Assembly (NCBI GenBank): GCA_039030015.1
Contig: JBCCEZ010000014.1
Span: forward strand, 15,119-79,118
Direction of reading: 5' to 3'
DNA from: Gemmatimonadota bacterium
Lineage (GTDB): Bacteria; Gemmatimonadota; Gemmatimonadetes; Longimicrobiales; Gaopeijiaceae
DNA: 64,000 nt
This document shows positions 24,825-45,709 of the stretch, one piece after another. Each line of letters opens with the position of its first letter. Within the stretch, counting starts at the first letter, position 1. Below the pieces are notes generated by a model. The model searched no databases. It worked only from the letters and a program-made list of their open reading frames with translations, and was not told where the DNA came from. The position numbers and the translations under genes are program-made.

Positions 24825-25001
24825 GCGGCGAGGTGTCAGAGGTGTGTACGGACACGGGGGAGATCCTCTCTCTGACTAGTGTCGGCGCCTGAGTGGGCTT
24901 CACGTAGTCCCAAATACGGATGACATCGGACGATGGGTGCCCGATCTTCATCGGCGTCCCCGCCGACGGGCCGTCACTCCCCCACGACCTCGTACTTCTC
25001 G

Positions 25002-29534: not shown

Positions 29535-31016
29535 TTACGTCCCGCAGAAGGTCGTGTACGATCCGAAGCTGTCCGGGGCGCGCTCGGTAAACGCTCCCAA
29601 ACCATCACGCTCCTCGAAGGGGCGAGCGAGTACGGTGAGGAGGCGGCGAAACGGTTCGAGTTCGCCGTCGATGGCCGCGTCGAGGGCCGCCTGAACGTTG
29701 TGATTCCGAGGGATGTACAGCGGGTTCACGCGGTCCATGGCGTCCGCCCGCGACGCGGCGTCGCCGCCCTCTCCCTCGAGTCGGGTGAGCCAGCGATCCA
29801 TCCAACCGTCGATCTCGCCCTTCTCTCGGAAGAGCATACGCACGGGGGTACGATCGCCTCGCGCGGCGCTGGAGAGCCGCCGGAAGAAGGCCGTGAAGTC
29901 CACGTCCTTCCCTTCCAATACGCCGAAGAGCTCACGGATCAGCTCCTCGTCGCCAGGCAGCGCCTCGAGCAAACCTAGCTTGGCCCGAACGCGCTCGAGC
30001 CAGCGCTCGAGATAGATGCCGGCATAGGCGTCGACCTCGGTCGTCGCCAACTCGATGGCGCGCTCCTCGTCGTCCGGTTCGATGAGAGGAAGCAGCGTCT
30101 CGGCGAGCCGCGCGAGATTCCACTGAGCGATGGCGGGCTGATTGCCGTACGCGTACCGGCCGTGTCGATCGATCGAGCTGAATACGGTCCCCAGGTCGTA
30201 CCCGTCCATGAACGCGCAGGGCCCGTAGTCGATCGTCTCCCCGGCGACCGTCGTGTTGTCGGTGTTCATGACCCCGTGCACGAAGCCGATCGACATCCAG
30301 TGGGCGACGAGCGCGGCCTGGCGATCCCGTACCGCGCCGAGCAGCCGCAGGTATCGGTCGTCCGCATCCACGAGGTCCGGGAAGTGTCGAGCGATCGTGT
30401 ACTCCGCGAGGAGGCGCACCCGCTCGCTCTCGCCGCGTGCAGCGAAGAACTGAAAGGTGCCCACCCGGATATGGCTCGAGGCCACCCGCGCGATGATCGC
30501 CCCGGGCTCGACGCTTTGGGGGCGCCGCACCTCCTCACCCGTCGTGATGGCCGCGAGCGCCCGTGTCGTCGGCACCCCGAGCGCGTGCATCGCCTCGCTC
30601 ATCAGATACTCGCGCAGCACCGGCCCCAGGCCGGCTTTGCCGTCTCCTCCGCGGGAGAAGGGTGTCCGGCCGGACCCCTTGAGCTGGAGGTCCCAGCGCG
30701 CGCCGGCTCGGTCGATCAGCTCGCCCAGGAGGAGCGCGCGGCCGTCCCCGAGCTGGGGTACGAAGTTGCCGAACTGATGCCCCGCGTACGCCTGAGCCAG
30801 TGGGGTCGTGCCTGCCGGGGGATCCATGCCGGCCAAGAGTCTCGCGCCGTCGTCGCTGGCCAAGACGTCGGCGTCGAGACCGAGCTCGGCCGCGAGCGGG
30901 TGATTGAGCTGCACGACCCGTGGCTCGGGCACCGAAGCGCCCTGCCACGGGACGTAGAAGCCCTCGAGCTCAGTCGCGTAACTCTGCTCGAACCCGAAGA
31001 TGTTCTCGACGCTCAC
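29535..31016 (-). CDS. selO: Protein adenylyltransferase SelO (YdiU/UPF0061)
   Basis: AYAGHQFGNFVPQLGDGRALLLGE, LKGSGRTPFSR, REYLMSEAMHALGVPTTRAL, HGVMNTDN and the C-terminal ...TFCGT are present. The GTG start overlaps the upstream TGA (GTGA). Confidence 0.95.
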   Translation of the reverse strand: MSVENIFGFEQSYATELEGFYVPWQGASVPEPRVVQLNHPLAAELGLDADVLASDDGARLLAGMDPPAGTTPLAQAYAGHQFGNFVPQLGDGRALLLGELIDRAGARWDLQLKGSGRTPFSRGGDGKAGLGPVLREYLMSEAMHALGVPTTRALAAITTGEEVRRPQSVEPGAIIARVASSHIRVGTFQFFAARGESERVRLLAEYTIARHFPDLVDADDRYLRLLGAVRDRQAALVAHWMSIGFVHGVMNTDNTTVAGETIDYGPCAFMDGYDLGTVFSSIDRHGRYAYGNQPAIAQWNLARLAETLLPLIEPDDEERAIELATTEVDAYAGIYLERWLERVRAKLGLLEALPGDEELIRELFGVLEGKDVDFTAFFRRLSSAARGDRTPVRMLFREKGEIDGWMDRWLTRLEGEGGDAASRADAMDRVNPLYIPRNHNVQAALDAAIDGELEPFRRLLTVLARPFEERDGLGAFTERAPDSFGSYTTFCGT

Positions 31017-34000
31017 CCCCCACTGCGCCTCACCGACGGGGCCCCGGTCGCCATGACCTCGTCATGGAGTCCATCGACCACGCCCGCCATACGTTCGATC
31101 TCCGCCGCGATCGGCCCGAGCTCAGCGCGGCCTGCGGCGACGGTTTGGCGATGGAGTTGGGTCGGCCCGTACGTGCTGTTGAGGCCGCGGAAGCCGAGAC
31201 CGAGTCGGCTGCCTGGAGTGGGCGGGCTGCGCTCACCGATCTCGCCGCGCGCCTCGCTCCCCTGCATCTGCTCCCGGAGGTCGAGGAGTGCTTGGCGGGT
31301 ATCGTACAGACGCTGGTGCAGCGCAGCGTCTGGGTTGTCGGCTCGGCTCAGCGACGTCTGCAGCGCCTCGATCATGTCGATCGACTCGGAGAGCGAGTTG
31401 CCGGCCTCGGTGAGGTCCATTTGGAACGCCTCGACCTCGCCGCGGAAGGTCTCGATAACCGCGTCCGACACGCGGGGCAGTGCTCCTTCTTCGAGCGCCG
31501 CGACTGCAAACTGGACCGGACCGTCGAGGACGGTCACGGCTCCTGCTTCGACTTTGACGAGCTCCGCCGTGTAGCTGCCGGGCCGAACGTTGAAGCCTCC
31601 GCCACCACCGCCGCCGCCGGGGTTGATCATGCCGTTGGAGGCATAATCCAGCTCCCAGTTGACCCGGTGTACACCCGCGGAGGTCGGACCACTCACGCGG
31701 TTGATCACCGTGCCGTCCATCGCACGCACGACGACGTGTACGCTCGGCCCTTGCTCACGCATCTCAGCCTCGATCGCGTCGTACCCTGGGAAGGGGATGT
31801 CCTGTCCGTCCGGGATGGCTCGCTCGCGGGCCTGCCGCTCGGCTTCGAGCGACCGATAGCCGTCACGCAGGTGATAGGTGAAGACCGCTCCGTACGGCGG
31901 GTTCGACGCCTGGTAGTCGCCGTCTCCTTGGTCATACGAGACGTTGTCCTCGATGAACTGGAAGGCGGTCCTCGTATCGAAGAGCGCTCCTTCACCAGCG
32001 AGCCGCTCCGACGTCATCGCACGCAGCGGCGTGTAGTCGTCCAGGATGTAGATGCCGCGGCCGAAGGTGCCCCCGACGACGTCCTCGTGGTCCCGCTGGA
32101 TGTCGACGTCACGGAAGGAGATCGTCGGCGCGCCGGGGATCTTCACCCACTGCGCACCCCCGTCCACCGTCACGAAGAGTCCGAACTCCGTGCCCGCGAA
32201 GAGGAGGTTCGGCTCGACGTGATCCTGCACCATCCGCCAGACGAGGTGACGCGCCGGCAGGTCGCCCGTGATCGACGTCCAGCTCTGACCGCGGTCCGTG
32301 CTCTTCACCAGGTATGGAGTGAAGTCTCCGTACTTGTGGTTGTCGAGAGCGACGTAGACGGTGTTCGCGTCGAACATGTCGGCCTTGATGTCGTTCACGA
32401 ACGCGGTGGCCGGGACGCCGGGGAGGTCCCCGACTTCGATCTGGCGCCAGTTGTCCCCGGTGTCCTCGGTGACCCAGAGGAGACCATCGTCCGTGCCCGC
32501 GTAGATGACGCCTTCCTCGACCGGCGATTCACCGAGTGAGGTGATCGTGTTGTAGTTCGACATGGCGCCGACATCCCATGCGTTGTCCCAGCTCTGCACG
32601 CGGCCCATGTGCTCGATCTCGATCCGCTCCTGGCTCCGGGTCAGGTCGCCGGAGATCGGCGTCCACGAATCCCCGCGGTCGTCGGTCCTCCACACGCGGT
32701 ACGAGGCGAAGTAGATCCGGGTGGGGCTGTGCGGGCTGACCTCGATGGGAGCGTCCCAGTTGAAGCGCTCGAACGGCTCACCTTCCCGCGCCTGGGGCTG
32801 GATGAAGACCTGATCTCGCGTCGTCAGGTCGACGCGGTGTAGGCCGCCCTGCTGCGTTTCGGCGTAGATGATGTTGGGGTTGCCCGGCTCCGTTGCCGAG
32901 TCGTGTCCGTCGGCGCCGAGCGTCGCGAACCAGTCGGCGTTACGGATGCCGTGATCGAAGGTCGTCCGCGACGGTCCCCCGTTCGACCCGTTGTCCTGCA
33001 TGCCCCCATAAACGTTGTAGAAGGGGCGGCTGTCATCGACCGAGATCTTGTAGTACTGCATCACCGGAAGATTGCGGACGTAGCGCCACGTCTCGGTCAG
33101 ATCGAACGTCTCGTAGAGGCCGCCGTCCGATCCGATCAGGACGTACTCCGGGTTGCTCTTCTTGAACGCGATCGCGTGATCGTCGACGTGCTTGTCCTGA
33201 ACATTCATCCGGGCGAAGTCGGCCCCGTGATTGTCCGAGACGAGCGTATAGTTGTTCACCAGGTAGAGTCGACCTTCCTGGTGCGGCGAGGCGTAGAGCT
33301 CCTGGTAGTAGTGGGGGCCCGTTCCGCCGGAGACCGCGTCGGACATCTTCCGCCACGACTCGCCTCGGTTCTCGGACATCCACACACCACCTTCGGCGCG
33401 GATCGTTTCGATGGCCGCGTAGACCCGGTCGGGATTCTGGGGGGAGATCGCGAGCCCGATCTTGCCGAGCGGACCGCCGGGCAGGCCCGTGGTCAGCTGC
33501 GTCCACGTCTCGCCGCCGTCCTCCGACTTGTGAAGTCCGCTGCCCGGTCCACCGCCGAAGTAGGCCGCGACCGTGCGGTGCCGGTCCCATGTCGCTGCGA
33601 TCAGGACGTCCGGGTTCCGCGGGTCGATCACGATGTCGGTGACGCCGGTCCACTCGCCTTCTCCGAGGACCTTCCGCCAGCTCTCCCCGCCGTCGGTCGT
33701 CTTGTAGAGACCGCGCTCACCGCCGGGGCTCCATAGGGGTCCCTGGGCGGCTACCCACACCACGTCGGAGTTCTCCGGGTGGACGATGATCGTGGAGAGG
33801 TGGTTGGTCCCGCCCAACCCCATGTTCGTCCAAGTGCGCCCGTCGTCCGTGCTCTTGTAAATCCCGTCGCCGAAGCCGACGTGGCGACCTCCGACGTTCT
33901 CGCCGGTCCCGACCCAGACGGTCGACGGCGTGCTCGGGTCGATCGTCACGTCGCCGATCGAATACGACGCCTGGTCGTCGAAGATCGGCTCGAACGTCGT

Positions 34001-34237
34001 GCCGTTGTTCGTCGTTTTCCAGACACCACCCGACCCGACGGCGACGTACCAGACGTTCTCGTCATGCGGGTGGATGTCGATGTCCGAGACTCGGCCGCTG
34101 TTGGTGGCGGGTCCGATTCCTCGGAGAGATAGCCCGGAGATCCGGGTGTCGGCGAGCGTACTCTCCTGAGCCTGAAGCGCGGCCGGGAGTGCGACGACGA
34201 AGAGGGCGAGCAGGAGGGTCGAGACGAGCGACTTCAT
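31013..34237 (-). CDS. Secreted Sortilin/VPS10-type BNR (Asp-box) repeat protein (paralog of 25905-29066)
   Basis: The signal peptide is MKSLVSTLLLALFVVALPAALQAQE. Asp-boxes include STDDGRTW, TTDGGESW, SEDGGETW, TDDRGDSW and STDRGQSW. The ORF-track start at 34420 was replaced by 34237. Confidence 0.9.
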   Translation of the reverse strand: MKSLVSTLLLALFVVALPAALQAQESTLADTRISGLSLRGIGPATNSGRVSDIDIHPHDENVWYVAVGSGGVWKTTNNGTTFEPIFDDQASYSIGDVTIDPSTPSTVWVGTGENVGGRHVGFGDGIYKSTDDGRTWTNMGLGGTNHLSTIIVHPENSDVVWVAAQGPLWSPGGERGLYKTTDGGESWRKVLGEGEWTGVTDIVIDPRNPDVLIAATWDRHRTVAAYFGGGPGSGLHKSEDGGETWTQLTTGLPGGPLGKIGLAISPQNPDRVYAAIETIRAEGGVWMSENRGESWRKMSDAVSGGTGPHYYQELYASPHQEGRLYLVNNYTLVSDNHGADFARMNVQDKHVDDHAIAFKKSNPEYVLIGSDGGLYETFDLTETWRYVRNLPVMQYYKISVDDSRPFYNVYGGMQDNGSNGGPSRTTFDHGIRNADWFATLGADGHDSATEPGNPNIIYAETQQGGLHRVDLTTRDQVFIQPQAREGEPFERFNWDAPIEVSPHSPTRIYFASYRVWRTDDRGDSWTPISGDLTRSQERIEIEHMGRVQSWDNAWDVGAMSNYNTITSLGESPVEEGVIYAGTDDGLLWVTEDTGDNWRQIEVGDLPGVPATAFVNDIKADMFDANTVYVALDNHKYGDFTPYLVKSTDRGQSWTSITGDLPARHLVWRMVQDHVEPNLLFAGTEFGLFVTVDGGAQWVKIPGAPTISFRDVDIQRDHEDVVGGTFGRGIYILDDYTPLRAMTSERLAGEGALFDTRTAFQFIEDNVSYDQGDGDYQASNPPYGAVFTYHLRDGYRSLEAERQARERAIPDGQDIPFPGYDAIEAEMREQGPSVHVVVRAMDGTVINRVSGPTSAGVHRVNWELDYASNGMINPGGGGGGGGFNVRPGSYTAELVKVEAGAVTVLDGPVQFAVAALEEGALPRVSDAVIETFRGEVEAFQMDLTEAGNSLSESIDMIEALQTSLSRADNPDAALHQRLYDTRQALLDLREQMQGSEARGEIGERSPPTPGSRLGLGFRGLNSTYGPTQLHRQTVAAGRAELGPIAAEIERMAGVVDGLHDEVMATGAPSVRRSGG

Positions 34238-34462
34238 GGCACGAGACTCCACGTAGGGCGTGCGGTGGTCGGGAACCTCAGAAACGGCTGCGGCGCGGCG
34301 CGCTTCGAGGGGCCGCGAAACTACAGCCGGAGGAGACGAGCGTCGATACGCGGTGCCGTTTCGTTCAAGGCTGTCGTCCTCCTCCCCGACTACTCTAGGG
34401 ATCCCGCCGCAGCCCGCCATGAGCTGCGCGCTGATCGATGGGCCTAGTCGAGGAGCCTCCCC

Positions 34463-35260
34463 GTGCAGTCCACCCTGATGTTCGCCGCCATCGCGATCGC
34501 CTTCCTTGTGCCCGCTTCGCTATCGGCGCAGGACGAAGAGTCCTCCGACGAGGAGTACTCCACGTACGCCCACGGTGAGTTCACCGTCCACTATCGGGCG
34601 GAGCATGTGCCGATCGAGGGTGTTCGACTCGTCGCTGAGCGGGTCGAGGCATCACTGGAGATCGTTCGCGCGTTCCTTGCTCAAAGCGACGAGTACGAGG
34701 GCCCGCCGTACGAGACGGCGCTCGGCGTCGTGATCGATCCCGACCAGTTCTCGCCCTACCAGTTCGGCAGCAACATCGCCCTCCCCGAGGCCCGTGTGCT
34801 GAACATCGTTCGAGAGGTAGAAGACGCTCGGGTCGATATCGGGATCATTCACGAGCTGACCCACGTGCTCGCGGCGAGTTACAACCGAGAGAACCGCGAT
34901 CGCTTCTACGACGATGGCATCGCGGTCTACCTCCAGCACCGGTTTGGTCCCACACCGAACTATCCGGACTTCGGCGAGGATCTCTACATCGCGACGGCAC
35001 GCGCCGCGGAGATCAACGGAGGGCTGATTCCGCTCGCGATCACCGAGGAAACTCGAGGCTCGTCGGAGACGCGGATCGGGCGGCAGCTCGCCTACCTCCA
35101 GGAGGGCGCGTTCACCCAGTTCCTCATCGAGGGCTACGGGCTCGACACGTACTTTCGGATCTACCACGGCGTCACGCTCGAGGACGCGACGGGGAAGTCG
35201 CTGGCTCAGCTCGAGGCCGAGTGGACGGCGATGATCGAAGCGGCCCCGATCTGGAGGTAG
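34463..35260 (+). CDS. Secreted hypothetical protein with an HExxH motif (putative metallopeptidase)
   Basis: The GTG start is preceded by GAGGAG. The signal peptide ends in LSAQDE. The motif IIHELTHVL is present. Confidence 0.7.
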   Translation: MQSTLMFAAIAIAFLVPASLSAQDEESSDEEYSTYAHGEFTVHYRAEHVPIEGVRLVAERVEASLEIVRAFLAQSDEYEGPPYETALGVVIDPDQFSPYQFGSNIALPEARVLNIVREVEDARVDIGIIHELTHVLAASYNRENRDRFYDDGIAVYLQHRFGPTPNYPDFGEDLYIATARAAEINGGLIPLAITEETRGSSETRIGRQLAYLQEGAFTQFLIEGYGLDTYFRIYHGVTLEDATGKSLAQLEAEWTAMIEAAPIWR

Positions 35261-35264
35261 CCTC

Positions 35265-35693
35265 TCACTCCTCGGCGTAGGTGGTTTCCATGAGGTTGAG
35301 GCACCGGATCCAGAACGGGACGTTCATCGCCTCGTAGCGGATCGAGTCTGGACCGGTCACCGTCGTGAAGAAGATGTTGCTCGGTTCCTCGACGAGCTCC
35401 TCGAAGAGTCGATCGAGGCAGTAGCTGTGGATTTCGTCACGGGCGCCGGAGACAGGGGCCCCCGCGCCGCCCCGGGCGTGATCACGTAGCGCGTCGATGA
35501 TCGCCGAAATGTCTTTCGTGTCGAGCTCGACCCCGAGCGGACGAGCCTCACGACGGTGCTCCTCGACGATCGTCATCAGTCGTTCGACCACCCGCTTGGA
35601 CTCTGCCTTTGGGTGGTCGATGTCTTGTCGGGGTCTTTGAGCGGGGACGTACACCGAGGGGCAGTGGCCCTTTGGGATTTCGGGACGGATCAT
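35265..35693 (-). CDS. Hypothetical cytoplasmic protein
   Basis: The amino-acid composition looks coding (MTIVEEHRREARPLGVELDTKDISAIIDALRDH...FWIRCLNLMETTYAEE). No family was recognised. An alternative ATG start lies at 35576. Confidence 0.5.
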   Translation of the reverse strand: MIRPEIPKGHCPSVYVPAQRPRQDIDHPKAESKRVVERLMTIVEEHRREARPLGVELDTKDISAIIDALRDHARGGAGAPVSGARDEIHSYCLDRLFEELVEEPSNIFFTTVTGPDSIRYEAMNVPFWIRCLNLMETTYAEE

Positions 35694-35841: not shown

Positions 35842-36063
35842 CGACGACGGGTTGCTGGTTCCGACCATGTCGGTCTATCATCCGCCGCGAAGAAAGGCGA
35901 TGGGGCTACGGAAGCCGGTCCAAATCCGGCGCGGCCCCGCCACTGTAGGAGGCCAAGCACGACGCGCGCGTCGCGCTGGTTCGGCCCGCTCAACGGCCAC
36001 TGGGGGTGATTCCCGGGAAGGCGAGCGGTGCTGCCTCGAGCCAGGAGACGGGTTCCGTCGCCG
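35842..36063 (+). promoter_or_regulatory. Cobalamin (B12) riboswitch aptamer (Rfam RF00174-like)
   Basis: Conserved core strings are in the correct order. GGAAGCCGGTCCAAATCCGGCGCGGCCCCGCCACTGTAGG spans about 35909-35949. GCCACTG is at 35996-36002, GGGAAGGC at 36015-36022, and the B12-box-like AGCCAGGAGACGGG at 36039-36052. A candidate P1 pairs CGACGACGG (35842-35850) with CCGTCGCCG (36055-36063). Boundaries are approximate. Confidence 0.8.
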
Positions 36064-36138
36064 TTACCCAGAACACCCTCGCGGGAGGGGCGGGTTTCGA
36101 GGCGTGGCCCTTCGTGGCCGCGACAGGATCGGTGCCCC

Positions 36139-36161
36139 TTCCGTCTCGGTACAGGACGGAA
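36139..36161 (+). promoter_or_regulatory. Hairpin sequestering the putative Shine-Dalgarno of the cobN-like gene (candidate expression platform)
   Basis: TTCCGTC-tcggtacag-GACGGAA forms a 7-bp stem. The 3' arm contains the purine-rich GGACGGA located 5 nt upstream of the GTG at 36166. Confidence 0.4.
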
Positions 36162-36165
36162 TCTC

Positions 36166-39100
36166 GTGCACTTCCTCACCGGCCTTGAAGGGATTCGACG
36201 CCCTCGCGCTTCCCGACCCGCGGGTCTCCGACTTGTCGTCGCGGCGCTCGCGCTGAGTGGATGCTCCTCGGAGGGCGGAACGACGCTCATCATCGATTCA
36301 CCGTCGGGCGTGAACCGCTTCGTGCAAGCTGCGCATAGCGTGCACGAGCGCGAGGTGGCGGACGACCTTCCCGAGACTCGGTGGATCATCCGTACCACGC
36401 GGCAGGTCGTCGACGCGCCGGTAGACACCGTGCGCGCCTGGCTCGAGGAGGCGGATCGGGCCGTGATCCGGCTTGCGTACGAGGAGGTGGCCGAGAAGCT
36501 GACCGAGGCGATGCCCCCGGTTGACGCGCGACCTGGGCCCCTCTGGTTCTTCAGCTCTGAGCCGTCGCTGCTTCGCGAAACCACGGGATCGGATGGCCAG
36601 CGCCACCTCGCCGACCGCGACGACGACTTTTTCCGAAGGCTCGCGGATGGTGTCGACTCGATTGGGGTCGCTGGGCCCGAACTGAAAGCGTGGGAGCACG
36701 CGGACCTTCTACTGGACGCCAAGGGAGAGGAGGCCGCCACCCGGCTCCTGGACTTCCTCGCCGCGGCGGAGGCGGAGGGTGAGAGTGTCGCCCTCGCGTC
36801 ATCGTCGTTGCCCGAATCGGAGGCGCTCGACGAGTTGTACGCCCTCGACGGCCTCCCCGACTTCGGTGATGACGCACCCGTCGTCGGGATCATCGACTTC
36901 GATTCGTATGCTCTCAACAGCGAGTCGGTGATCCTCGACAGCATCGCAGCTGCCCTCTCTCGTCACGGCATTCGACCGCGCCCGGTGATCGCGGAGTGGG
37001 GCGAGAGAACCGCCGATGCGATGATGGAGCACTTTGCGGGCGGCCCCACCGGTGAGCCGGAGGTCGACGCCGTGATCAGCTTGCAGACCTTCTTGCTGGG
37101 CGGCGCGGGGGGGCGGGAGGCTGCGGACTCGCTTCTGGCTTCGTGGGGGGTCCCCGTCTTTCGTGCCATCCGGATGACGGACTTCAGCCCGCTTGAGTGG
37201 AGACTTTCAGCGGAGGGCATTCCGTGGGCGAGCGTCTACCACCAGGTCGCCCTTCCCGAGCTGCAGGCCGTCATCGAACCAACCGTCGTTGCGGCCGAGT
37301 CGACGGACGAGTTGGACGAACTGACGGGGGCCCGCCGTGCGTTGTACGCGCCGATTCCTGAGCAGGTCGAGATGCTCGCGGAGCGCACCGCACGTTGGGT
37401 CAATCTCCGACGGACGGAGAACGAAGACCGCCGCGTCGCCTTCATCTACTACAACCACCCTCCCGGGCGTCAAAACATCGGCGCCGACAACCTGAACGTG
37501 ATCGGGTCGTCGGTCCGGATCCTCGAGCTCCTTCGCGACAATGGGTACGACCTGGGGGACTGGTCTGAGGAGCGGTGGCCGTGGGAGCCGGACTCTCTGG
37601 CAGCTCAGTTGGTCCGTCGGGGGGTCAACGCAGGGATGTATGGCGCGGGGATGCTCGACTCGCTCGTCGCGAGCGGTGCCGTGCTTGTGCCCGCGGAGCA
37701 GTACGAGACGTGGTTCCGTGCCCTCCCCGAACTCGTGCAGGTCGAGATCGAAGACGGGCCGCTCGGATACCTTCAGGCGATCCTCGAGGAGTACATCGTC
37801 AGTGGTGCGCATGCGAATCGCTCGGAGGAGACCGAGCGGATCGTGCATGAGATCATCGAGGGAGAAATCGACCTCGTCTTCGCGCAGATGGAGAGCTTCT
37901 TCGACGCCTTCAGCCCCTTCGCCCCAGAGATGCGTACGGGACCCGATGTGTTGGCGGAAGTAGAGCGGGAGGCCAGGCAGGTCCTCGACGAGGGAGCCCC
38001 GCTCAATGGTCTACTCGAGGCGAAGCGGCGCTTCCTGGATCTCGGGATCGAGGCGCTGAGCGGGTGGGGCCCGCCGCCGGGCAACGTTATGCGTGTGACT
38101 CGAGCGGGGCAGGACTACCTCGTGGTGCCTGGAGTGCAGGGTGGCAACGTCTTCCTCGGGCCTCAGCCGGAGCGCGGATTCGCTGCGGATCCGGAGAAGG
38201 TGCACTCGAGTACGCTGGTCGCGCCGCCGCACCAGTACCTCGCCGTGTACGCCTACCTCTCCCACGAGTTCGGCGCGGACGCCGTTGTGCACGTCGGACG
38301 TCACTCGTCGTACGAATGGCTTCCCCGCAAACAGGTCGGACTCTCTGCGTGGGATCACCCGGTAGCGGTGCTGCAGGGGATGCCGTCCATCTACCTCTAC
38401 ACCGTGGATGGGGTTGGGGAGGGTCTTCAGGCCAAGCGTCGTGGGCTCGCCGCGCTCATCGATCACCTCACGCCTCCGATCAAGACGACCGAGCTCTACG
38501 GAGACCTCCTCGCCCTCCATCAACTCCACGACGGCTACTACGCCCAGGAGGCGCCGGAGCGAAGGAGCGCCATCGTCGAGGAGATCCTCGAGATCTTGGG
38601 GCGACCGGAGCTTGCCGACCTCAGGGAGGAGATGGAGGCGGAGAACGGCGGCCTGCCGGTGACGCAAATGGGACCTGACCTCCTTGTGCACGAGGTCGGT
38701 CACGAGACCGGCGCGTTTCGAGAGACGATGATGCCCTTCGGGCTTCACACGTTTGCGCGCCGTTGGTCCGAGGAAGAGGCCAACATGCTCGCGGAGTCCA
38801 TGGCGGGCTTCCAGGTCTCGGCCGACGCTCCGAATCGAGCTCAGGGGCTGGCCGAGGCGACGGCCGCGAACGTCGCGGCCATCCACGCGAGCACGGAAGC
38901 CGAGGGGGAGAGCCTTCTCCGGGCGCTCGCCGGTGAACGGGTGGAGCCGGGAAGTGGGAACGACCCGATTCGCACCCCGAGCGTACTTCCTACCGGCCGG
39001 AACTTCCACGCGTTGGACGCGACGCTCGTCCCGACTTCTCTCGCGATGCGCCTCGGGAACGCGATGGCGGATCAGAGTCTGGAACGGCTGCGGCGCGAGA

Positions 39101-40665
39101 ACGACGACCCGAACCACACACCCGAGCGGGTCAGCGCGGTCCTATGGGCTGTCGAAACAACGCGCGATGAGGGCGCCACCGTAGGTTTCGTGCTCCAACT
39201 GCTGGGGCTCCGAGCGGTGTGGGACGTCCGAGGGAAGGTCGAGCGCCTCGAGCGGATTCCGCTCCGCGAACTCGGCCGACCGAGGGTCGACGTGACGATG
39301 ATCACGTCGGGTCTCTTCCGGGACATCTTTTCCCCGGTACTCCATCTGCTGGACCAGGGTACGCGACTCGCGATCGCGGGATCTGCTCGGACGATCCTCA
39401 CTGAGCAGCCGGGTTTGGCCCCGGCTCTTCGCGCGGCGCTCTTCGACATCCCTGCGGAGTCTTGGGGCACGGAGTCCCTGGCTGAAAACCACGTGGCGGG
39501 ACATTGGTTGGCCGAAGTGAGCGAACGACTCGACGAGGTGACGGCGAGTGGCGCTACCGTGAGAGACGCGCAGCGGGAGCGGGCGGGTCGAGTCGCCCAG
39601 GCGAGGATCTTCGGACCGTCGGTCGGCGACTATGGAGCCGGCTTGAACTACCTGATTGGGCAACCGTGGACGTGGGACGACCGCGGTGAGCTCTCCGGTC
39701 ACTACCTCCGGAACATGCAGTACGCATACGGCGGTGAGGTGTGGGGGGACCCAATGGCGGCCGACGGTCTGGAGCGTAAGCTCGAGGGCACGGAAGCCGC
39801 CTTCCACTCGCGGTCGTCGAACCTCTACGGGGTCGCGGACAACGACGACTTTTTCGACTACTTCGGTGGCTTGTCGATGGCTGTGGAAGCCGTGACCGGC
39901 ACGGCCCCGAAGAGCTTCATCCTCCAGTCTACCGATCCGAACAACGTGAGCGTCGAGCGGCTCCAGACCTTCCTCGGCCGAGAGCTGAGAGCGCGGTACT
40001 ACAACCCGGAGTGGATCGAGGGGCAGATGGACGAGGGGTACGACGGTGCCCGAACCATCTCGAACAAGTTCGTCGAGTTCCTTTGGGGCTGGCAGGTCAC
40101 GAACCCGGACATCGTACGCGATTGGATGTGGACGGAGATCCAGGACGTCTACGTCGAGGACCGGTACGGCCTTGGACTCGAGGAGTGGTTCGACGCTGGG
40201 GATCGAGGCTACGCGCTCCAGAATGTGCTGGCGATCCTCATGACGGCTGCCGAGCGGGGCTTTTGGGGGGCGACGGAGGAAGAGCTCGCGCAGATCGCCG
40301 ACCGACTCGGTACACTGGTCAACGAGATCGGCGTCGCGTGCTCGACGCATCTCTGCGGGAACACCGACGTGATGGAGTATGCCGAGGCTCGGATGACACC
40401 GGAGCTCCAGGACAGCTTCCGAGAGGCGCTCGACGAGGCACGCTTCGCGTGGGCCGACACCGATGGGCCGGTGGACGAGACTGCGGACGGTGATGTGACC
40501 GATCCGTCGGCAGGTGAGCCCTCTGCCGTGGTGACTGAGGTCACGCCGACCCCCGAAGAGTCCGCACCGACGAATACGCCGCGGAACGTCGCCCTCGGGC
40601 TTCTCCTGGCCCTCCTGCTCGCGGCGTTCGGTACCGGGGTGCTGCGCGGACGAGGTCATCGATGA
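36166..40665 (+). CDS. CobN/Mg-chelatase-family protein (HmuS-like), predicted lipoprotein with a C-terminal TM anchor
   Basis: CobN signatures are HVGRHSSYEWLPRKQVGLS, GEGLQAKRRGLAALIDHLTPP, LPTGRNFHALD, VLWAVETTRDEGATVGFVLQLLGLRAVWD and RPRVDVTMITSGLFRD. The start was set to the GTG at 36166 because the ORF-track start (36028) lies inside the riboswitch. The N-terminus RLVVAALALSGC is a signal plus lipobox. The C-terminus NVALGLLLALLLAAFGTGVL is a TM helix. Confidence 0.9.
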   Translation: MHFLTGLEGIRRPRASRPAGLRLVVAALALSGCSSEGGTTLIIDSPSGVNRFVQAAHSVHEREVADDLPETRWIIRTTRQVVDAPVDTVRAWLEEADRAVIRLAYEEVAEKLTEAMPPVDARPGPLWFFSSEPSLLRETTGSDGQRHLADRDDDFFRRLADGVDSIGVAGPELKAWEHADLLLDAKGEEAATRLLDFLAAAEAEGESVALASSSLPESEALDELYALDGLPDFGDDAPVVGIIDFDSYALNSESVILDSIAAALSRHGIRPRPVIAEWGERTADAMMEHFAGGPTGEPEVDAVISLQTFLLGGAGGREAADSLLASWGVPVFRAIRMTDFSPLEWRLSAEGIPWASVYHQVALPELQAVIEPTVVAAESTDELDELTGARRALYAPIPEQVEMLAERTARWVNLRRTENEDRRVAFIYYNHPPGRQNIGADNLNVIGSSVRILELLRDNGYDLGDWSEERWPWEPDSLAAQLVRRGVNAGMYGAGMLDSLVASGAVLVPAEQYETWFRALPELVQVEIEDGPLGYLQAILEEYIVSGAHANRSEETERIVHEIIEGEIDLVFAQMESFFDAFSPFAPEMRTGPDVLAEVEREARQVLDEGAPLNGLLEAKRRFLDLGIEALSGWGPPPGNVMRVTRAGQDYLVVPGVQGGNVFLGPQPERGFAADPEKVHSSTLVAPPHQYLAVYAYLSHEFGADAVVHVGRHSSYEWLPRKQVGLSAWDHPVAVLQGMPSIYLYTVDGVGEGLQAKRRGLAALIDHLTPPIKTTELYGDLLALHQLHDGYYAQEAPERRSAIVEEILEILGRPELADLREEMEAENGGLPVTQMGPDLLVHEVGHETGAFRETMMPFGLHTFARRWSEEEANMLAESMAGFQVSADAPNRAQGLAEATAANVAAIHASTEAEGESLLRALAGERVEPGSGNDPIRTPSVLPTGRNFHALDATLVPTSLAMRLGNAMADQSLERLRRENDDPNHTPERVSAVLWAVETTRDEGATVGFVLQLLGLRAVWDVRGKVERLERIPLRELGRPRVDVTMITSGLFRDIFSPVLHLLDQGTRLAIAGSARTILTEQPGLAPALRAALFDIPAESWGTESLAENHVAGHWLAEVSERLDEVTASGATVRDAQRERAGRVAQARIFGPSVGDYGAGLNYLIGQPWTWDDRGELSGHYLRNMQYAYGGEVWGDPMAADGLERKLEGTEAAFHSRSSNLYGVADNDDFFDYFGGLSMAVEAVTGTAPKSFILQSTDPNNVSVERLQTFLGRELRARYYNPEWIEGQMDEGYDGARTISNKFVEFLWGWQVTNPDIVRDWMWTEIQDVYVEDRYGLGLEEWFDAGDRGYALQNVLAILMTAAERGFWGATEEELAQIADRLGTLVNEIGVACSTHLCGNTDVMEYAEARMTPELQDSFREALDEARFAWADTDGPVDETADGDVTDPSAGEPSAVVTEVTPTPEESAPTNTPRNVALGLLLALLLAAFGTGVLRGRGHR

Positions 40666-41228
40666 CGGCATCGCTTCTTCCCATCCTGCACGGCTTCGTG
40701 CAGGCGCTTCTCGGGCCGGTGCTGCTGACGCTCTTCTTGTCGACCGTCTACCTGACGTACGAGTGCGGCGTCTTCCTACGTGAAGCGTGGTCTCGAAGGG
40801 GCGGGCGCCTCGGGAGCGCCGCCGCCGCGGACCACCCGGGCGACCTCGCCGAGGCGCACCGATTGCTGGCTGACACGGAAGCCGGCTTCGCTCGGCGGCT
40901 GGAGCGCACCGACATTCTCGCTCGCCTCGGCCCGGCCCTCGGCCTCGCCGGTACGTTGATCCCCTTGGGGCCAGGGCTTTCCGGTCTCCAGCGAGGCGAT
41001 GTCTCGGTCCTCGCCAGCGCGTTGACCGTGGCGTTCGACACGACGGTGTTGGGGCTGGTTGTCGGCGTCGTGGCCTTCGTCCTTTCTCGCGTGCGCCGGC
41101 GTTGGTACGAGTCTGAGTTGGACTCGCTAGCGGAGCAGTGGGAGGAGTCGCTTCCGGGCGCCGCGGCGAACGACGGGGTAGGGGACGGCGAGTCCGGCGA
41201 TGGACTTCGCGCGAAGGGCTCAACGTGA
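40662..41228 (+). CDS. MotA/TolQ/ExbB-family proton-channel protein
   Basis: ATGA overlap with the cobN-like stop. Three TM helices are present, with ILARLGPALGLAGTLIPLGPGL and TTVLGLVVGVVAFVLSRV resembling the conserved MotA_ExbB core. Confidence 0.85.
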   Translation: MTASLLPILHGFVQALLGPVLLTLFLSTVYLTYECGVFLREAWSRRGGRLGSAAAADHPGDLAEAHRLLADTEAGFARRLERTDILARLGPALGLAGTLIPLGPGLSGLQRGDVSVLASALTVAFDTTVLGLVVGVVAFVLSRVRRRWYESELDSLAEQWEESLPGAAANDGVGDGESGDGLRAKGST

Positions 41229-41599
41229 ACAAGGGGCCGCGCCTGCGTCGCAGACCTCGCCGAGTGCTCGGTACCGGTCGGTTCTCCCGGGAGCACGACG
41301 ACGATCCGTTAACCGGGCTCGCGAACCTTGTCGACCTGATGCTCGTCTTCGCCTGTGGCCTTTTGATTGCCGTCTTCCTCTCGCTCGACCTCGCCGACCT
41401 CCTTCAGCTTCCTGAGGAAGAGCGAGCCGCCGTTCTCGAGTCCCTCCGGAACGCGCAGGAGCTCGATGCCATCGACACCCGACCCGAGAACGTCACGCAG
41501 AGTGAGATCGAGAGCGCCGGCCAGTATCGGTCGGTCGGGACGGTATATCGTGACACGTTGACCGGCCGGATGTTCGTCATAGAGGGCGACGGCCGCTGA
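41225..41599 (+). CDS. ExbD/TolR-like single-pass protein (DUF2149-like)
   Basis: GTGA overlap with the exbB-like stop. The basic N-terminus is followed by DPLTGLANLVDLMLVFACGLLIAVFL, an ExbD-type TM segment, and then a short soluble domain. The DUF2149 assignment is from memory. Confidence 0.7.
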   Translation: MNKGPRLRRRPRRVLGTGRFSREHDDDPLTGLANLVDLMLVFACGLLIAVFLSLDLADLLQLPEEERAAVLESLRNAQELDAIDTRPENVTQSEIESAGQYRSVGTVYRDTLTGRMFVIEGDGR

Positions 41600-41679: not shown

Positions 41680-44121
41680 GTGCGCCCCCGCGTCTCGCTC
41701 TGCCTCGGAGGTCCCGTGCGTACCCCACTCCGTACCCTGATCCGACGCCCACTTCGCGCGGCTGGGTGGTGTGTCTCCTTCGCCCTTCTAGGAGTGATCG
41801 CCGCCTGCGGCGACGCCACGAGCGGGGACGGCCCCGCTTCGGCGCCCGGCGACTACACCCAGGTCGCGGCACAGCTCGAGGCGATGATCGAGCGCGAGCG
41901 TGAGGAGAAGGGACTCGAAGCCGTCTCCATTGCTCTCGTGGACGGGGACGACGTGGTGTGGGCGAGCGGATTCGGCGAGCAATCCAACGGCGTTCCCGCG
42001 ACGGCCGAGACCGTGTACCGGGTGGGATCGGTCTCGAAGATGTTCACGGACATTGCCGTGATGCAGCTCCTCGAAGCCGGCGAGATGGACATCGATGCGC
42101 CGGTGCAGGAGTACGTCCCCGACTTCAATCCGACGAACGACTCGGGGACGCCGATCACGCTACGGCAGCTGATGGCCCACCGCGCGGGGATCATCCGCGA
42201 ACCACCTGCCGGCCACTACTTCGACGACACCGGTACCGACCTGGCGACCACGGTTCGTAGCATGGACCTCACGCCGCAGATCTATCCGCCCACGACGCGG
42301 ACGAAGTACTCCAATGCGGGGATCGCCGTCGTGGGGTATGCCCTCGAGACGACGCAGGGACGGCCCTTCGCCGAGTACGTGAAGGAGGCCGTACTTCAAC
42401 CGCTCGGCATGACACGGAGCGCCTTCGAGCCGGAAGTCGAGATCGTGAACGACCTCGCCGATGCATGGATGTGGGGCTTCGACCGGGCGCTCTTTCCCGC
42501 ACCGACCTTCGAGCTCGGCATGGCGCCGGCCGGGAGCATGTATTCGACCGTCCTCGACCTGTCGCGCTTCATGAGTGCGGCTTTCCGCGGTGGAGTCGGG
42601 GAGGACGGACAGCGGGTCCTCGCGGCCGAAACGCTGGAGTCGATGTTCGAACCACAATTCGCCGAGGCCGGCGCGACGACCGGGTATGGATTCGGCTTCC
42701 GCGTGAGCGAGATGGACGGGCACCGCCACCTCGGGCACGGCGGAGCGATCTACGGCTTTTCCACCCAGCTCTCCATGCTCCCGGACGAGGGGTTGGGAGT
42801 GGCCGTCGTCTCTGCGGTGGACGGGACGAACACGGTCGTGGGGCGAATCGCAGACGCCGCGCTCCAGATGATGTTGGCGGCTCGGAGTGGATCCCCTCTC
42901 CCCATGGACGTGATGCTCGGAACCGATCCGATCGATCCCGAGCTCTCCCGCGAGCTCGAAGGCTGGTACGGGACGGGCGACGCGGCGGTGGAGTTGGACG
43001 ACCGGGGCGGCCGCCTCTACGCGATCCCCGCGCGGGGTGGGGCCGTGATGGAGGTGCGGAGCCGGGGGGACACGCTCATCGTCGACGATCGGGTCTCGTT
43101 CGGGCTTCGCATGCTCCGAGAGGGCTCGGACCTGGTGCGGCTCGGTGACTCGCCCGTTCGGCTCGCCCGGCGTGCGGACGGAGGACTGCCGCCAGCCGCT
43201 CCCGCTCGATGGGAGGGGTTGATCGGTGAGTACGGATGGGACCACAACGTCCTCTACATCCTGGAGCGGGAGGGCCAGCTCCATGCCCTGATCGAGTGGT
43301 TCTTCCTCTACCCGCTCGAGGAGATTTCGCAGGACGTCTTTGCCTTCCCCGATTGGGGCCTGTATCACGACGAACGGCTGGTCTTCGAGCGGGACGGCGC
43401 GGGACGAGCGACCTCGGTCGAAGCGGCTTCGGTGCGCTTCGATCGGCGCGAGGTCGGGACCGAGGCCGGGCGGACCTTCCGGATCAACCCTGTGCGCCCG
43501 GTCCGCGAGCTGCGCGCGGAGGCACTCGCCGCCGATCCCCTTCAGGAAGAGGGTGAATTCAGACCGTCCGACTTGGTGGAAGTCGCGACGCTGGATCCGG
43601 GCATCAAGCTGGACGTGCGGTACGCTACGACCAACAACTTCATGTCGTCGGTCTTCTACGACGAGGCGCGGATCTTCCTGCAGCGGCCGGCCGCGGAAGG
43701 CGTCCTCGAGGCGCACCGGGCGCTCACCGAGTACGGGTACGGTCTCCTCCTCCACGACGGGTACCGACCGTGGTACGTCACCAAGACTTTCTGGGATGCG
43801 ACTCCGGAGGAACAGAAGCTCTTCGTGGCGAATCCGGCCAACGGTTCTCGGCACAACCGCGGCGCCGCGATCGATTTGACGATGTACGACGTCAGGACCG
43901 GGGAGCCGGTCGACATGGTTGGCGGCTACGACGAGTTCTCACCCCGCTCGTTCCCCGACTACCTCGGTGGCACATCTCGACAGCGCTGGCTTCGGAATCT
44001 CCTTCGCAACGCGATGGAGGAGGCCGGATTCTCCGTGTACGAGGCCGAGTGGTGGCACTTCGACCACGAAGACTGGCGGATGTACGCGATTCAGAACGCG
44101 ACGTTCGACGAGCTGAGGTAG
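41680..44121 (+). CDS. Exported fusion: beta-lactamase-family serine hydrolase, DUF3471-like middle region and a VanX/DdpX-type D-Ala-D-Ala dipeptidase (M15D)
   Basis: The lipobox is LLGVIAAC. N-domain motifs are SVSK (SxxK), YSN and HGG. The C-domain has DVRYATTNNF, LLLHDGYRPW, GSRHNRGAAIDLTM and AEWWHFDH (VanX zinc and catalytic motifs). Confidence 0.9.
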   Translation: MRPRVSLCLGGPVRTPLRTLIRRPLRAAGWCVSFALLGVIAACGDATSGDGPASAPGDYTQVAAQLEAMIEREREEKGLEAVSIALVDGDDVVWASGFGEQSNGVPATAETVYRVGSVSKMFTDIAVMQLLEAGEMDIDAPVQEYVPDFNPTNDSGTPITLRQLMAHRAGIIREPPAGHYFDDTGTDLATTVRSMDLTPQIYPPTTRTKYSNAGIAVVGYALETTQGRPFAEYVKEAVLQPLGMTRSAFEPEVEIVNDLADAWMWGFDRALFPAPTFELGMAPAGSMYSTVLDLSRFMSAAFRGGVGEDGQRVLAAETLESMFEPQFAEAGATTGYGFGFRVSEMDGHRHLGHGGAIYGFSTQLSMLPDEGLGVAVVSAVDGTNTVVGRIADAALQMMLAARSGSPLPMDVMLGTDPIDPELSRELEGWYGTGDAAVELDDRGGRLYAIPARGGAVMEVRSRGDTLIVDDRVSFGLRMLREGSDLVRLGDSPVRLARRADGGLPPAAPARWEGLIGEYGWDHNVLYILEREGQLHALIEWFFLYPLEEISQDVFAFPDWGLYHDERLVFERDGAGRATSVEAASVRFDRREVGTEAGRTFRINPVRPVRELRAEALAADPLQEEGEFRPSDLVEVATLDPGIKLDVRYATTNNFMSSVFYDEARIFLQRPAAEGVLEAHRALTEYGYGLLLHDGYRPWYVTKTFWDATPEEQKLFVANPANGSRHNRGAAIDLTMYDVRTGEPVDMVGGYDEFSPRSFPDYLGGTSRQRWLRNLLRNAMEEAGFSVYEAEWWHFDHEDWRMYAIQNATFDELR

Positions 44122-44656: not shown

Positions 44657-45709
44657 ATGACTCCAACCGCACATACCGTGGTGATCGGTGCCGGCGTGAG
44701 CGGTCTCGCCACGGCCCGAACGCTTCAAGCGGCGGGCGTCGACGTCGTCGTGCTCGAAGCTCGTGACCGGGTCGGCGGGCGGCTGCGTTCCGTGCCCCTC
44801 GGAGACGCGGGGGTCGACCTAGGCGCAACGTGGTTCTGGGCGAACGAACCCCGGGTGGTCGCCCTGGTCGAGGAGTTCGGCTTGGCGACCCATGCGCAAC
44901 ATCTGGCCGGCGACGCCTTGTACCAGATCCCCGGTGTTGTCCAACGAATCGCGGGGAATCCGATCGATGGACCCGCGTGGCGACTCTCCGCGGGCACCCA
45001 GCGCCTGGCCGAAGCGCTCGCGGAATGTCTCGACGAAGGCACGGTGCGCCTCGAGCATGTCGTGTCCGCGATCCGAGCCGTCGATGGGCTCCTCTCGGTC
45101 GAGGGTTCGTTCGGATCGATCGAGGGGCGACACGTTGTGGTCGCGCTGCCGCCGGTTCTGGCCGTGCACGCTCTGGACTTCGATCCCCCCCTCCCGGAAT
45201 CGACCCGGGCGATTGCAGGCCAGGTCCCTGTCTGGATGGGGTCGATGACGAAGGTCGTGATCCGGTACGCGACCCCGTTCTGGAGGGAGAGGGGGCTGGC
45301 CGGCGCGGTGATGAGTCATGCAGGGCCGATGCGGGAGATGCACGACATGAGCGGCCCGGCCGGAGACCCGGCCGCGCTCTTCGGATTCGCGCCGCCACTC
45401 CATCCCCAAGCCCCGACGGTCTCGGAGGACGCCGTACGGCGGCAGCTCACCGAGCTCTTCGGCGCGGACGCCCCCGAGCCCGTCGACGTCGCCATCACAG
45501 ACTGGCGCATGGAACGCTTCACGACCCCGCCCGGAGCGGTGTCACTCCAGTCGTACGAGACGTATGGCCATCCGGTCTTCCAAACCCCGACGTGGGAGGG
45601 GCGCCTCCACTGGTCGTCGACCGAGACATCTCGTGACTTCCCCGGGCACATCGAAGGAGCGCTCTCGGCCGCAGCACGGACCGCCGAAGCGATCCTCTCG
45701 GGCGCGTAA
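44657..45709 (+). CDS. FAD-dependent amine oxidase (flavin monoamine oxidase family)
   Basis: VVIGAGVSGLATARTL...VVVLEARDRVGGR is the dinucleotide-binding motif. The C-terminal FPGHIEGALSAA is also present. Confidence 0.9.
   Translation: MTPTAHTVVIGAGVSGLATARTLQAAGVDVVVLEARDRVGGRLRSVPLGDAGVDLGATWFWANEPRVVALVEEFGLATHAQHLAGDALYQIPGVVQRIAGNPIDGPAWRLSAGTQRLAEALAECLDEGTVRLEHVVSAIRAVDGLLSVEGSFGSIEGRHVVVALPPVLAVHALDFDPPLPESTRAIAGQVPVWMGSMTKVVIRYATPFWRERGLAGAVMSHAGPMREMHDMSGPAGDPAALFGFAPPLHPQAPTVSEDAVRRQLTELFGADAPEPVDVAITDWRMERFTTPPGAVSLQSYETYGHPVFQTPTWEGRLHWSSTETSRDFPGHIEGALSAAARTAEAILSGA

Follow-up and report, generated by a model that had tools for sequence, protein, structure and literature searches.

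An exported CobN-like protein and its ExbB-like and DUF2149 partners define a widespread clade linked to cobalamin riboswitches

The stretch of DNA analysed here, 64,000 nucleotides (nt) of contig JBCCEZ010000014.1 from a Gemmatimonadota bacterium (hereafter the window; G+C content 66-70%), encodes a CobN-family protein of 1499 amino acids (aa) bearing signals for export and membrane anchoring. This raises the question of what a chelatase-like protein would do outside the cytoplasm, under which control and with which source of energy. An earlier note on the gene had proposed periplasmic chemistry of the tetrapyrrole type with an energy source other than ATP, which is a reasonable idea. It had also presented an extracytoplasmic CobN homologue as if without precedent, and this does not hold, since the periplasmic and anchored HmuS/BtuS proteins have been published with structure and activity (PMC12583661, PMC6460266, PMC13227078). 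Its account was moreover incomplete, HmuS appearing there only as a clade of a tree, and both the riboswitch that precedes the gene and the ExbB-like and DUF2149 genes that follow it having been missed; these elements assign the protein to the B12 regulon and suggest what could energise it. The window protein belongs to a distinct and widespread clade, linked to cobalamin (B12) riboswitches, in which an exported CobN-like protein forms a module with an ExbB-like and a DUF2149 protein; the characterised iron version of this module is HmuS.

The riboswitch preceding the gene (Table 1) scores 60.3 bits against a gathering threshold of 31.5 for the Rfam family (E-value (E) 1.9e-12); the match is partial, covering model positions 47-167, and its alignment includes the B12 box (GCCACUGG...CCCGGGAAGG...GCCAGGAGAC). 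No other Rfam family was found in the window. Minimum-energy folding pairs the aptamer's 3' end with the region of the ribosome-binding site (RBS), in a fold no better than those of shuffled sequences (z -1.29), and no intrinsic terminator was found in the region of the expression platform; both the platform and its regulatory mechanism are thus presumed. At the other end, the stop codon of the CobN-like gene overlaps the ATG of the ExbB-like gene (ATGA at 40662-40665), whose stop in turn overlaps the GTG start of the DUF2149 gene (GTGA at 41225-41228). Positions 35910-41599 would constitute a single B12-repressed operon composed of the cobalamin riboswitch and the genes of the exported CobN-like, ExbB-like and DUF2149 proteins.

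This organization is recurrent. A genome scan with one genome per species retrieved at least 586 loci encoding relatives, and the locus counts given below refer to 85 loci including that of the window. The best 80 of the at least 586 loci are distributed among Gammaproteobacteria, Betaproteobacteria, Myxococcota, Nitrospirota, Nitrospinota, Acidobacteriota, Verrucomicrobiota, Planctomycetota, Binatia, Campylobacterota, Gemmatimonadota and one metagenome-assembled genome (MAG) of Actinomycetota. An ExbB-like gene lies directly downstream on the same strand in 78 of the 85 loci and a DUF2149 gene in 75, the exceptions being mostly contig ends. Upstream and on the same strand, an Rfam cobalamin riboswitch was found in six of the eight loci first tested, and a sequence profile built from those matches was then run on the 85 loci. 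It gave a strong match upstream on the same strand in 46 loci: in 30 it lies within 600 nt of the gene, and in 16 it heads a longer operon of the type riboswitch, TonB-dependent outer-membrane receptor (TBDR), CobO, CobB, CobN-like, ExbB, DUF2149. Fifteen loci display weak matches only, five of the nine tested among them passing Rfam. The negative calls of the profile hold, because none of the 16 loci tested among the 20 without any profile match passes Rfam. TBDR genes are neighbours in 36 loci, and the neighbours named by NCBIfam include CobO/BtuR (26 loci), BtuF (25), BluB (24), an ATP-binding cassette ATPase (21), CobB (20), CobD (16), CbiB (14), BtuC (14) and CobS (11); the gene of a relative with 58% identity sits between cobC/cobB-or-Q/cobO and a bluB-cobT fusion. 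Given these riboswitches and these neighbours involved in B12 uptake and late synthesis, the clade belongs to the B12 regulon; as read from the sequences, it is controlled by this regulon and embedded in it across phyla.

Some of these loci present particular arrangements. A Nitrospirae MAG (L008) contains four same-strand cobalamin riboswitches in 18 kilobases (kb), at 793-984, 3267-3465, 12019-12182 and 16015-16234, interleaved with three TBDR genes, cobB, the trio of CobN-like, ExbB-like and DUF2149 genes, cobO and bluB. In Massilia timonae (L004; 3939-6090, 13110-16625), a group II intron (RF00029 and a reverse-transcriptase open reading frame (ORF)) stands 2 kb 5' of the riboswitch, and downstream of the trio come a TBDR and a PepSY_TM protein, of a family linked to periplasmic siderophore reduction. 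Copies linked to a riboswitch also occur in Stutzerimonas stutzeri, Pseudomonas indica, Massilia and Methylobacillus (L016, L079, L004, L058). In an Arenicellaceae MAG (L028), the opposite strand carries a glycine riboswitch (11551-11668 (-)) some 6 kb past the trio.

The CobN-family ORF with a lipobox signal, an acidic linker, a C-terminal helix and a terminal RGRGHR, as described in the earlier note, is confirmed from the sequence, and its start stands against the displacement that the note had considered. The open frame spans 36028-40665 (+), with GTG 36028 and GTG 36166 as the only in-frame starts ahead of the lipobox; since the former falls within the aptamer and AGGA sits 9 nt 5' of the latter, GTG 36166 is the credible start. 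The product begins with MHFLTGLEGIRRPRASRPAGLRLVVAALALSGC33SSEGG, i.e. a basic n-region, a short hydrophobic core and an L-S-G-C lipobox, which satisfies the pattern [LVI][ASTVI][GAS]C at the true N-terminus. The motif and the conserved position of the signal predict a lipoprotein: in the closest homologue (P0002, 58% identity), a type I signal peptide ends at the same alignment position, and the TVLIVDTPSG just past it aligns with TTLIIDSPSG of the window protein. At the other terminus, the 43-aa linker contains 11 Asp/Glu, one Arg and 18 Pro/Thr/Ser. The body of about 1400 aa is predicted to lie outside the cytoplasm because positive charges flank both hydrophobic segments on their terminal sides, which would place both termini on the cytoplasmic side, in agreement with the topology first proposed. 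An actinobacterial (monoderm) origin, which a G+C content of 66% had suggested, was rejected: the nearest named relatives of SecDF (65-68% identity) and the best genome match of the CobN-like protein (60%) are from Gemmatimonadota, a diderm phylum. Export by the twin-arginine translocation (Tat) pathway, suggested by the R11-R12 pair, was rejected, its context IRRPRAS being unlike the Tat consensus and the homologues inspected having no twin-arginine motif.

Both terminal elements are shared by the family. All 82 full-length members examined have a signal-like hydrophobic segment at the N-terminus and, at the C-terminus, a hydrophobic 17-mer with Arg/Lys behind it, and each of the ten homologues inspected in full combines a signal peptide with a C-terminal helix that precedes Arg/Lys, whereas six of the seven shorter CobN proteins tested have neither; the exception, P0090 from Brevundimonas, has both. 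The signal and the C-terminal anchor therefore constitute a family trait and not a chance occurrence. The lipobox itself is not a conserved element: type I sites of the A-x-A form prevail among the homologues, and lipobox-like motifs are limited to a few, the window protein included. Even inside the phylum this is the case, since in the nearest genome relative, a Gemmatimonadetes MAG (L005, 5619-8776) where a riboswitch is followed by a BtuF-like protein with its own lipobox (LAAC) and then by the CobN-like gene, the CobN-like signal appears to be of type I (ASA/QGK). The double anchoring previously claimed consequently fits the lipobox-bearing window protein but not most of its relatives, which would keep the C-terminal anchor alone after cleavage by signal peptidase I. 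In this anchor, the Gly at residue 1491 of the window protein is nearly invariant and the cytoplasmic end of the helix often reads G-[LIV]-[WL]-R-G-R in family members, a conservation beyond the need of a plain anchor, so that this end could be a contact site for the ExbB-like/DUF2149 pair.

The protein was also rightly said to be longer than canonical CobN, with 1499 aa against 1184-1332 aa for the weaker-scoring CobN matches. The extra length is explained by the 33-aa signal peptide, the 69 aa of linker, helix and tail, and some 100-115 residues between YYNHPPG and HVGRHS, motifs separated by 281 residues in the window protein, about 164 in Brucella CobN and about 176 in ChlH. The Pfam CobN-Mg_chel score exceeds its cut-off of 24.5 bits by far and assigns the protein to the superfamily of class I chelatase H/N subunits. 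Conversely, the scores for the NCBIfam CobN/BchH/ChlH equivalogs, those compared for CobN being TIGR02257, NF004643-46 and NF008973, all fall far below their curated cut-offs, the best being 695 against 1619 bits for NF004645, with 495 against 822 bits for TIGR02257. Sequence scores against PDB entries are nearly equal for ChlH (380 bits), HmuS (370) and two CobN (346 and 334). A search in a collection of 5.8 billion proteins, where the best two matches have 58% and 42% identity, revealed a sharp step between about 80 proteins scoring 599-1769 bits, nearly all of 1407-1528 aa with two shorter, and the following ones, which all score below 400 bits and measure 1184-1332 aa. The family was aligned by a single phmmer pass. 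In an unrooted neighbour-joining tree of the body region, the long clade and seven shorter sequences are split in 100 of 100 bootstraps. On sequence grounds, the window protein thus stands in a separate and widespread clade, apart from the annotated CobN of 1200-1300 aa; the position inside cytoplasmic CobN that the earlier note had set as a refuting outcome is not observed. Clade members are publicly named "cobaltochelatase subunit CobN", and two of them, from Massilia oculi and Duganella sp. Root336D2 (P0065 and P0067), "hydrogenase expression protein HypE" in UniRef/NCBI; both names are probably misleading.

The chelatase fold, another point on which a check had been proposed, is retained in the structural models. 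The AlphaFold2 model of the body (residues 400-1445) has a predicted local distance difference test score (pLDDT) of 90.3 and a predicted template modelling score (pTM) of 0.90, and the six-domain fold with its central cavity matches first HmuS (PDB 9d26; template modelling score (TM) 0.73, E 1e-49), then Mycobacterium tuberculosis CobN (0.68) and ChlH (~0.65) in a Foldseek search against the PDB, with E ranging from 1e-49 to 1e-39 among the three. The head/neck model (residues 34-430, pLDDT 84.5) is nearest to CobN (TM 0.50), then to ChlH. This is also the case by sequence, the neck matching CobN and ChlH with about 50 bits against 15.7 bits (E 0.06) for HmuS; the weak HmuS match of the N-terminal 412 residues covers chain residues 268-372, and the positions of Met79 and His254 are outside the alignment. 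In the cryo-electron microscopy (cryo-EM) structure of Brucella CobN, two Co2+ ions are held at H554, E593 and D1100 (10.64898/2026.07.21.739949), which correspond to H713, E752 and D1227 of the window protein in phmmer alignments to PDB sequences, the residue roles being taken from that study and from PMC12583661. G711, R712, H713 and S714 as well as V750, G751, E752 and G753 are invariant in the clade alignment, as are D1225, N1226, D1228, D1231 and GG in the third motif. In this last motif, LSLDHxxEFMGG of HmuS is replaced by VADNDDFFDYFGG, with Asp1228 at the position of HmuS His1209 and Asp1231 at that of Glu1212. Taken with the CobN of CobNST (PDB 7c6o, 9uk9), the window protein has in common the six-domain fold, the metal-site equivalents, the nearest head/neck and the CobN-like motifs HxGxH..E.LP.K and DxDDxxxxxGG; it differs by its export and membrane tether and by a helical insertion of about 110 residues. 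The Met-rich insertion of HmuS is missing, the window protein having at most 6 Met per 60 residues and the proteins of the 85 loci no stretch of more than 7. From the models, the residue mapping and the missing HmuS motifs, the protein is considered a complete six-domain class I chelatase fold combining a metal site of the CobN type with a topology of the HmuS type. A relative from Thioalkalivibrio sp. AKL7 (P0007) has a His/Asp/Glu-rich insertion of about 75 aa (HHHDHGHHHDDHGDHH...) between ...ELARG and TSLAEMDEELLVHEIGHYL in domain IV, the place of the HmuS Met-rich insertion. An insertion of this type is found in none of the 85-locus proteins; a possible role is that of a loop collecting metals such as Co, Ni or Zn.

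The two downstream genes suggest where the energy could come from. A profile of 39 ExbB-like proteins matched MotA in the PDB (E 0.0016), and PomA, ExbB and TolQ weakly, the Pfam cut-off for the window member being 22.9 bits. The 40 DUF2149 proteins compared share an invariant Asp in their single membrane helix (ANLVDxMLVFACGL) and a conserved C-terminal VGxVYRDPxTGK. An essential Asp in a membrane helix is found in ExbD, TolR and MotB, and the combination of such an Asp with a small periplasmic domain suggests, by analogy, a stator. The hmu operon likewise includes an ExbB-type gene, hmuU, and a DUF2149 gene, hmuV (PMC11681262, PMC10434189), and no mention of DUF2149 in a B12 context was found in the literature searched. 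Neither TBDR, btu or cob genes nor matches to CobS/CobT or ChlI/ChlD were found among the other annotated ORFs of the window, and families of the AAA+ CobS/CobT type are absent from the named neighbours in the 85 loci. Because the pair is present far more constantly than TBDR genes (78 and 75 loci against 36), is joined to the CobN-like gene by overlapping codons and occurs in a window without TBDR, these sequence data favour a link of the pair with the CobN-like protein over one with outer-membrane transport.

Table 1. Position of the riboswitch, genes and protein elements of the operon in the window
Feature	Position	Strand	Basis
Cobalamin (B12) riboswitch aptamer, 116 nt 5' of the CobN-like start	35910..36049	+	Rfam RF00174
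Presumed expression platform with RBS AGGA 9 nt before GTG	36050..36165	+	Read from sequence
Exported CobN/Mg-chelatase-family protein gene, 1499 aa	36166..40665	+	Pfam PF02514, 861.5 bits
Lipoprotein-type signal peptide, residues 1-33, lipobox L30-S-G-C33	36166..36264	+	Motif; position is the cleavage region of homologues
Active-site motif HVGRHS; His713 = CobN His554 = HmuS His538	38290..38307	+	phmmer alignments to PDB CobN, ChlH
Motif VGEGLQAKRR; Glu752 = CobN Glu593	38413..38442	+	phmmer alignment
Motif ADNDDFFDYFGG; Asp1227 = CobN Asp1100	39835..39870	+	phmmer alignment
Acidic Pro/Thr/Ser-rich disordered linker, residues 1431-1473	40456..40584	+	Composition; pLDDT <50 from about residue 1428
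C-terminal transmembrane helix (20 aa, residues 1474-1493) and basic tail RGRGHR	40585..40662	+	Hydrophobicity; kept in 82/82 full-length relatives
MotA/ExbB/TolQ-family channel protein, 188 aa	40662..41228	+	Pfam PF01618, 36.7 bits
DUF2149 protein, 124 aa: one N-terminal transmembrane helix, invariant Asp37 (ANLVDLMLVF), small periplasmic domain	41225..41599	+	PF09919, 46-47 bits

Exported and membrane-anchored CobN homologues are an already known class, represented by HmuS/BtuS, with a cryo-EM structure from 2025, and by PA1922-25, with the same gene types. The heme de-chelatase HmuS of Bacteroides thetaiotaomicron (BtuS2), which exceeds 1400 aa, has a predicted single helix at each end and a 2.6-Å structure; it takes iron out of heme in the periplasm (PMC12583661). 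For BtuS1 and BtuS2 of B. fragilis, a periplasmic location with membrane anchoring was predicted (PMC6460266), and a 2026 study reported terminal helices in HmuS homologues and none in CobN and ChlH (PMC13227078). The window protein is similar to HmuS as a class I chelatase homologue of about 1450 aa facing the periplasm with terminal hydrophobic helices, by the MotA/ExbB-family gene and then the DUF2149 gene downstream (PMC11681262), by the best structural match of its body and by the superfamily His kept at the position of HmuS H538. Anchors are found at both ends of the two proteins, the N-terminal element being a lipoprotein signal in the window protein and an anchor helix in HmuS. Hmu-like operons of Bacteroides preceded by cobalamin riboswitches have been mentioned in passing (PMC10100974), and the name BtuS was given by Rodionov et al. 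2003 (cited through PMC6460266) to a third type of CobN, serving metalloporphyrin salvage. Compared by description, these operons and BtuS1 also associate an exported CobN-like protein with a cobalamin riboswitch; they differ in being accompanied by TonB-dependent receptors, and the passages that concern them propose corrinoids or other metalloporphyrins as targets, and not B12 synthesis (PMC10100974; PMC6460266).

Taken together, these characteristics are best explained by a periplasmic cobalt/corrinoid (de)chelatase-like enzyme, encoded in a B12-repressed operon and probably powered by the proton gradient, a reading to which we would give about an even chance. After its secretion, the large protein would remain on the outer face of the inner membrane, tethered there at its N-terminus by a lipid and at its C-terminus by the helix that follows the flexible acidic linker, and His713, Glu752 and Asp1227 would keep the Co2+-holding site of CobN. 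During B12 scarcity it would handle a cobalt-tetrapyrrole, a corrinoid or cobalt itself in the periplasm; with the heme de-chelatase HmuS as the model, the metal would most likely be removed or exchanged. Analogies of this kind underlie what is proposed here on substrate, reaction direction and proton-gradient coupling. The ExbB-like/DUF2149 pair would act as a proton-driven stator in place of the cytoplasmic AAA+ motor CobS/CobT. More specifically, the stator may grip the C-terminal helix and linker, do the work of CobS/CobT by means of the proton-motive force, and allow the protein to strip cobalt from, or re-metalate, scavenged corrinoids or cobalt-porphyrins at low B12, a possibility that we advance tentatively and would sooner doubt than accept. 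If true, HmuS for iron, PA1923 for zinc or cobalt and the present clade for cobalt would be three regulatory versions of one "metal-from-macrocycle" machine.

Several points weigh against this proposal. The clade is known from sequences, models and gene context alone, and the substrate and the direction are beyond the reach of sequence. Within the DNA fetched, 24 of the 85 loci have no riboswitch upstream on the same strand. The HmuS activity is reported to depend on NADH and on the membrane fraction, and HmuU/HmuV were assigned by the authors to the powering of the outer-membrane receptor and not of HmuS (PMC12583661). The position equivalent to CobN D1100 is an Asn in most of the clade and an Asp only in the subclade of the window. 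DUF2149 gave no match to ExbD/TolR/MotB, either with the 40 members in Pfam (E <=10) or with their profile in the PDB, and because of this lack of sequence similarity to ExbD/TolR its putative ExbD-like role is argued from architecture. Finally, the destruction of corrinoids for their cobalt seems wasteful with BtuF/BtuCD uptake genes nearby.

As CobN is the corrin-binding subunit of cobaltochelatase, the window protein could instead be a non-catalytic device for corrinoid capture and hand-off, which would bind periplasmic cobamides or cobinamide and pass them to BtuF/BtuCD in the manner of the surface proteins BtuG/BtuH of Bacteroides. The frequent adjacency of btuF, btuC, btuD and TBDR genes under one riboswitch fits this role, as does the tetrapyrrole bound at the head/neck interface of HmuS (PMC12583661). 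We nevertheless consider it unlikely, since the invariance of H713, E752 and D1228 across phyla would be unexpected for a mere binder, the proton-channel pair is nearly always attached and the operon of the window has no btu genes.

Alternatively, the pair could energise a TBDR importing a cobalt (or zinc) complex, with the CobN-like protein as an uncoupled metal chaperone or release factor of the periplasm. Such a role was put forward for the ExbB-like genes in the HmuS and ZnuA papers (PMC12583661, PMC4542158), and a TBDR belongs to the same gene string in at least 36 of the 85 loci and also in the Brevundimonas and Pseudomonas aeruginosa versions (PMC4542158). The P. aeruginosa operon PA1922-PA1925 is Zur-regulated and of the same gene types (PMC4542158, PMC13083405), and has been linked to raised cellular cobalt (PMC4542158). 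It shares with the Brevundimonas P0090 locus a TBDR, an exported CobN-like protein, an ExbB-like protein and a small protein of the DUF2149 type, with a suggested link to cobalt/zinc. This locus (L085, 4041-10620, from a MAG), just 3' of a DyP-type peroxidase gene, encodes a TBDR, P0090, a 158-aa protein and a DUF2149 protein. P0090, with its signal peptide and C-terminal helix, represents a second, shorter exported CobN-like type, of 1284 aa and grouping apart from the long clade. These two systems differ from the window operon in having the receptor gene first, and in their control, PA1922-25 being zinc-regulated and L085 having no cobalamin riboswitch in Rfam. For the clade itself, a role as a transport helper is rather unlikely: the conserved neighbours include no TonB-like gene, 49 of the 85 loci gave no TBDR within 7 kb (one TBDR cluster scored), none was found anywhere in the window, and the overlapping start and stop codons couple the pair to the CobN-like gene.

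A true orthologue of HmuS, acting as a periplasmic heme de-chelatase for iron, would account for the topology, for the hmuU- and hmuV-like partners and for 9d26 as the best structural match of the body. It appears improbable in view of the differences between the two systems. The window operon is preceded by a B12 riboswitch whereas HmuS is under iron control, and it lacks hmuY, hmuR and hmuT, none of which was found in the window, where only the hmuU-like (ExbB-type) and hmuV-like (DUF2149) genes are present and not the six-gene hmuYRSTUV operon. Among the hallmarks of HmuS (PMC12583661), the Met-rich insertion of domain IV, with 21 Met in 120 residues, has no equivalent; in the domain V motif LSLDHxxEFMGG, Asp residues take the place of His1209 and Glu1212; and the neck is nearer to CobN and ChlH, the heme ligands Met79 and His254 of HmuS being placed at its head/neck interface. 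HmuS is moreover from Bacteroidota, and the clade extends over Gemmatimonadota, Pseudomonadota, Myxococcota, Nitrospirota and others, not Bacteroidota. The least probable explanation, an ordinary cytoplasmic CobN subunit of aerobic cobaltochelatase, as suggested by the annotation of relatives, the CobN-like metal-site residues and the frequent cobB and cobO neighbours, is already contradicted on sequence evidence by the sub-threshold scores for all CobN equivalogs, the conserved signal peptide and membrane tether, the lack of AAA+ partner genes in the 64-kb window and of CobS/CobT-type families among the named neighbours, and the bootstrap split and score step (from at least 750 bits within the clade to under 400 for CobN) that separate the long clade from shorter CobN.

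These findings have several implications. Hundreds of genomes name the gene "cobaltochelatase subunit CobN" (some of them "HypE"), and its use as a marker of the aerobic B12 pathway would lead to false pathway calls. The B12 regulon of many environmental bacteria includes a large, conserved periplasmic machine resembling chelatases, and if cobalt is released or inserted outside the cytoplasm, models of how cobalt and corrinoids are acquired and cross-fed would need an extra step. That a MotA/ExbB-type channel and a single-pass protein bearing an Asp constantly accompany the CobN-like protein suggests that chelatase-type chemistry may be powered without ATP, and testing such powering would also bear on HmuS and HmuTUV of gut Bacteroides.

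Other genes of the window lie around the operon. Directly 5' of the riboswitch, two ORFs (34463-35260 (+) and 35265-35693 (-)) have a coding-like G+C content at third codon positions and no significant Pfam/NCBIfam match. A gene located 81 nt past the DUF2149 stop (41680-44121 (+)) encodes an 813-aa fusion of a serine beta-lactamase/penicillin-binding protein-like domain and a D-Ala-D-Ala dipeptidase (M15). Two genes reported within 10 kb of the operon, whose link to tetrapyrrole metabolism is only a guess, are one of the chlorite-dismutase family that may encode the coproheme decarboxylase HemQ/ChdC (24933-25829 (+)) and a short one of the flavin amine-oxidase family (44657-45709 (+)). Two Sortilin-Vps10/BNR-repeat proteins of 1053 and 1135 aa (25905-29066 (+) and 31013-34420 (-)) are encoded on either side of a SelO gene.

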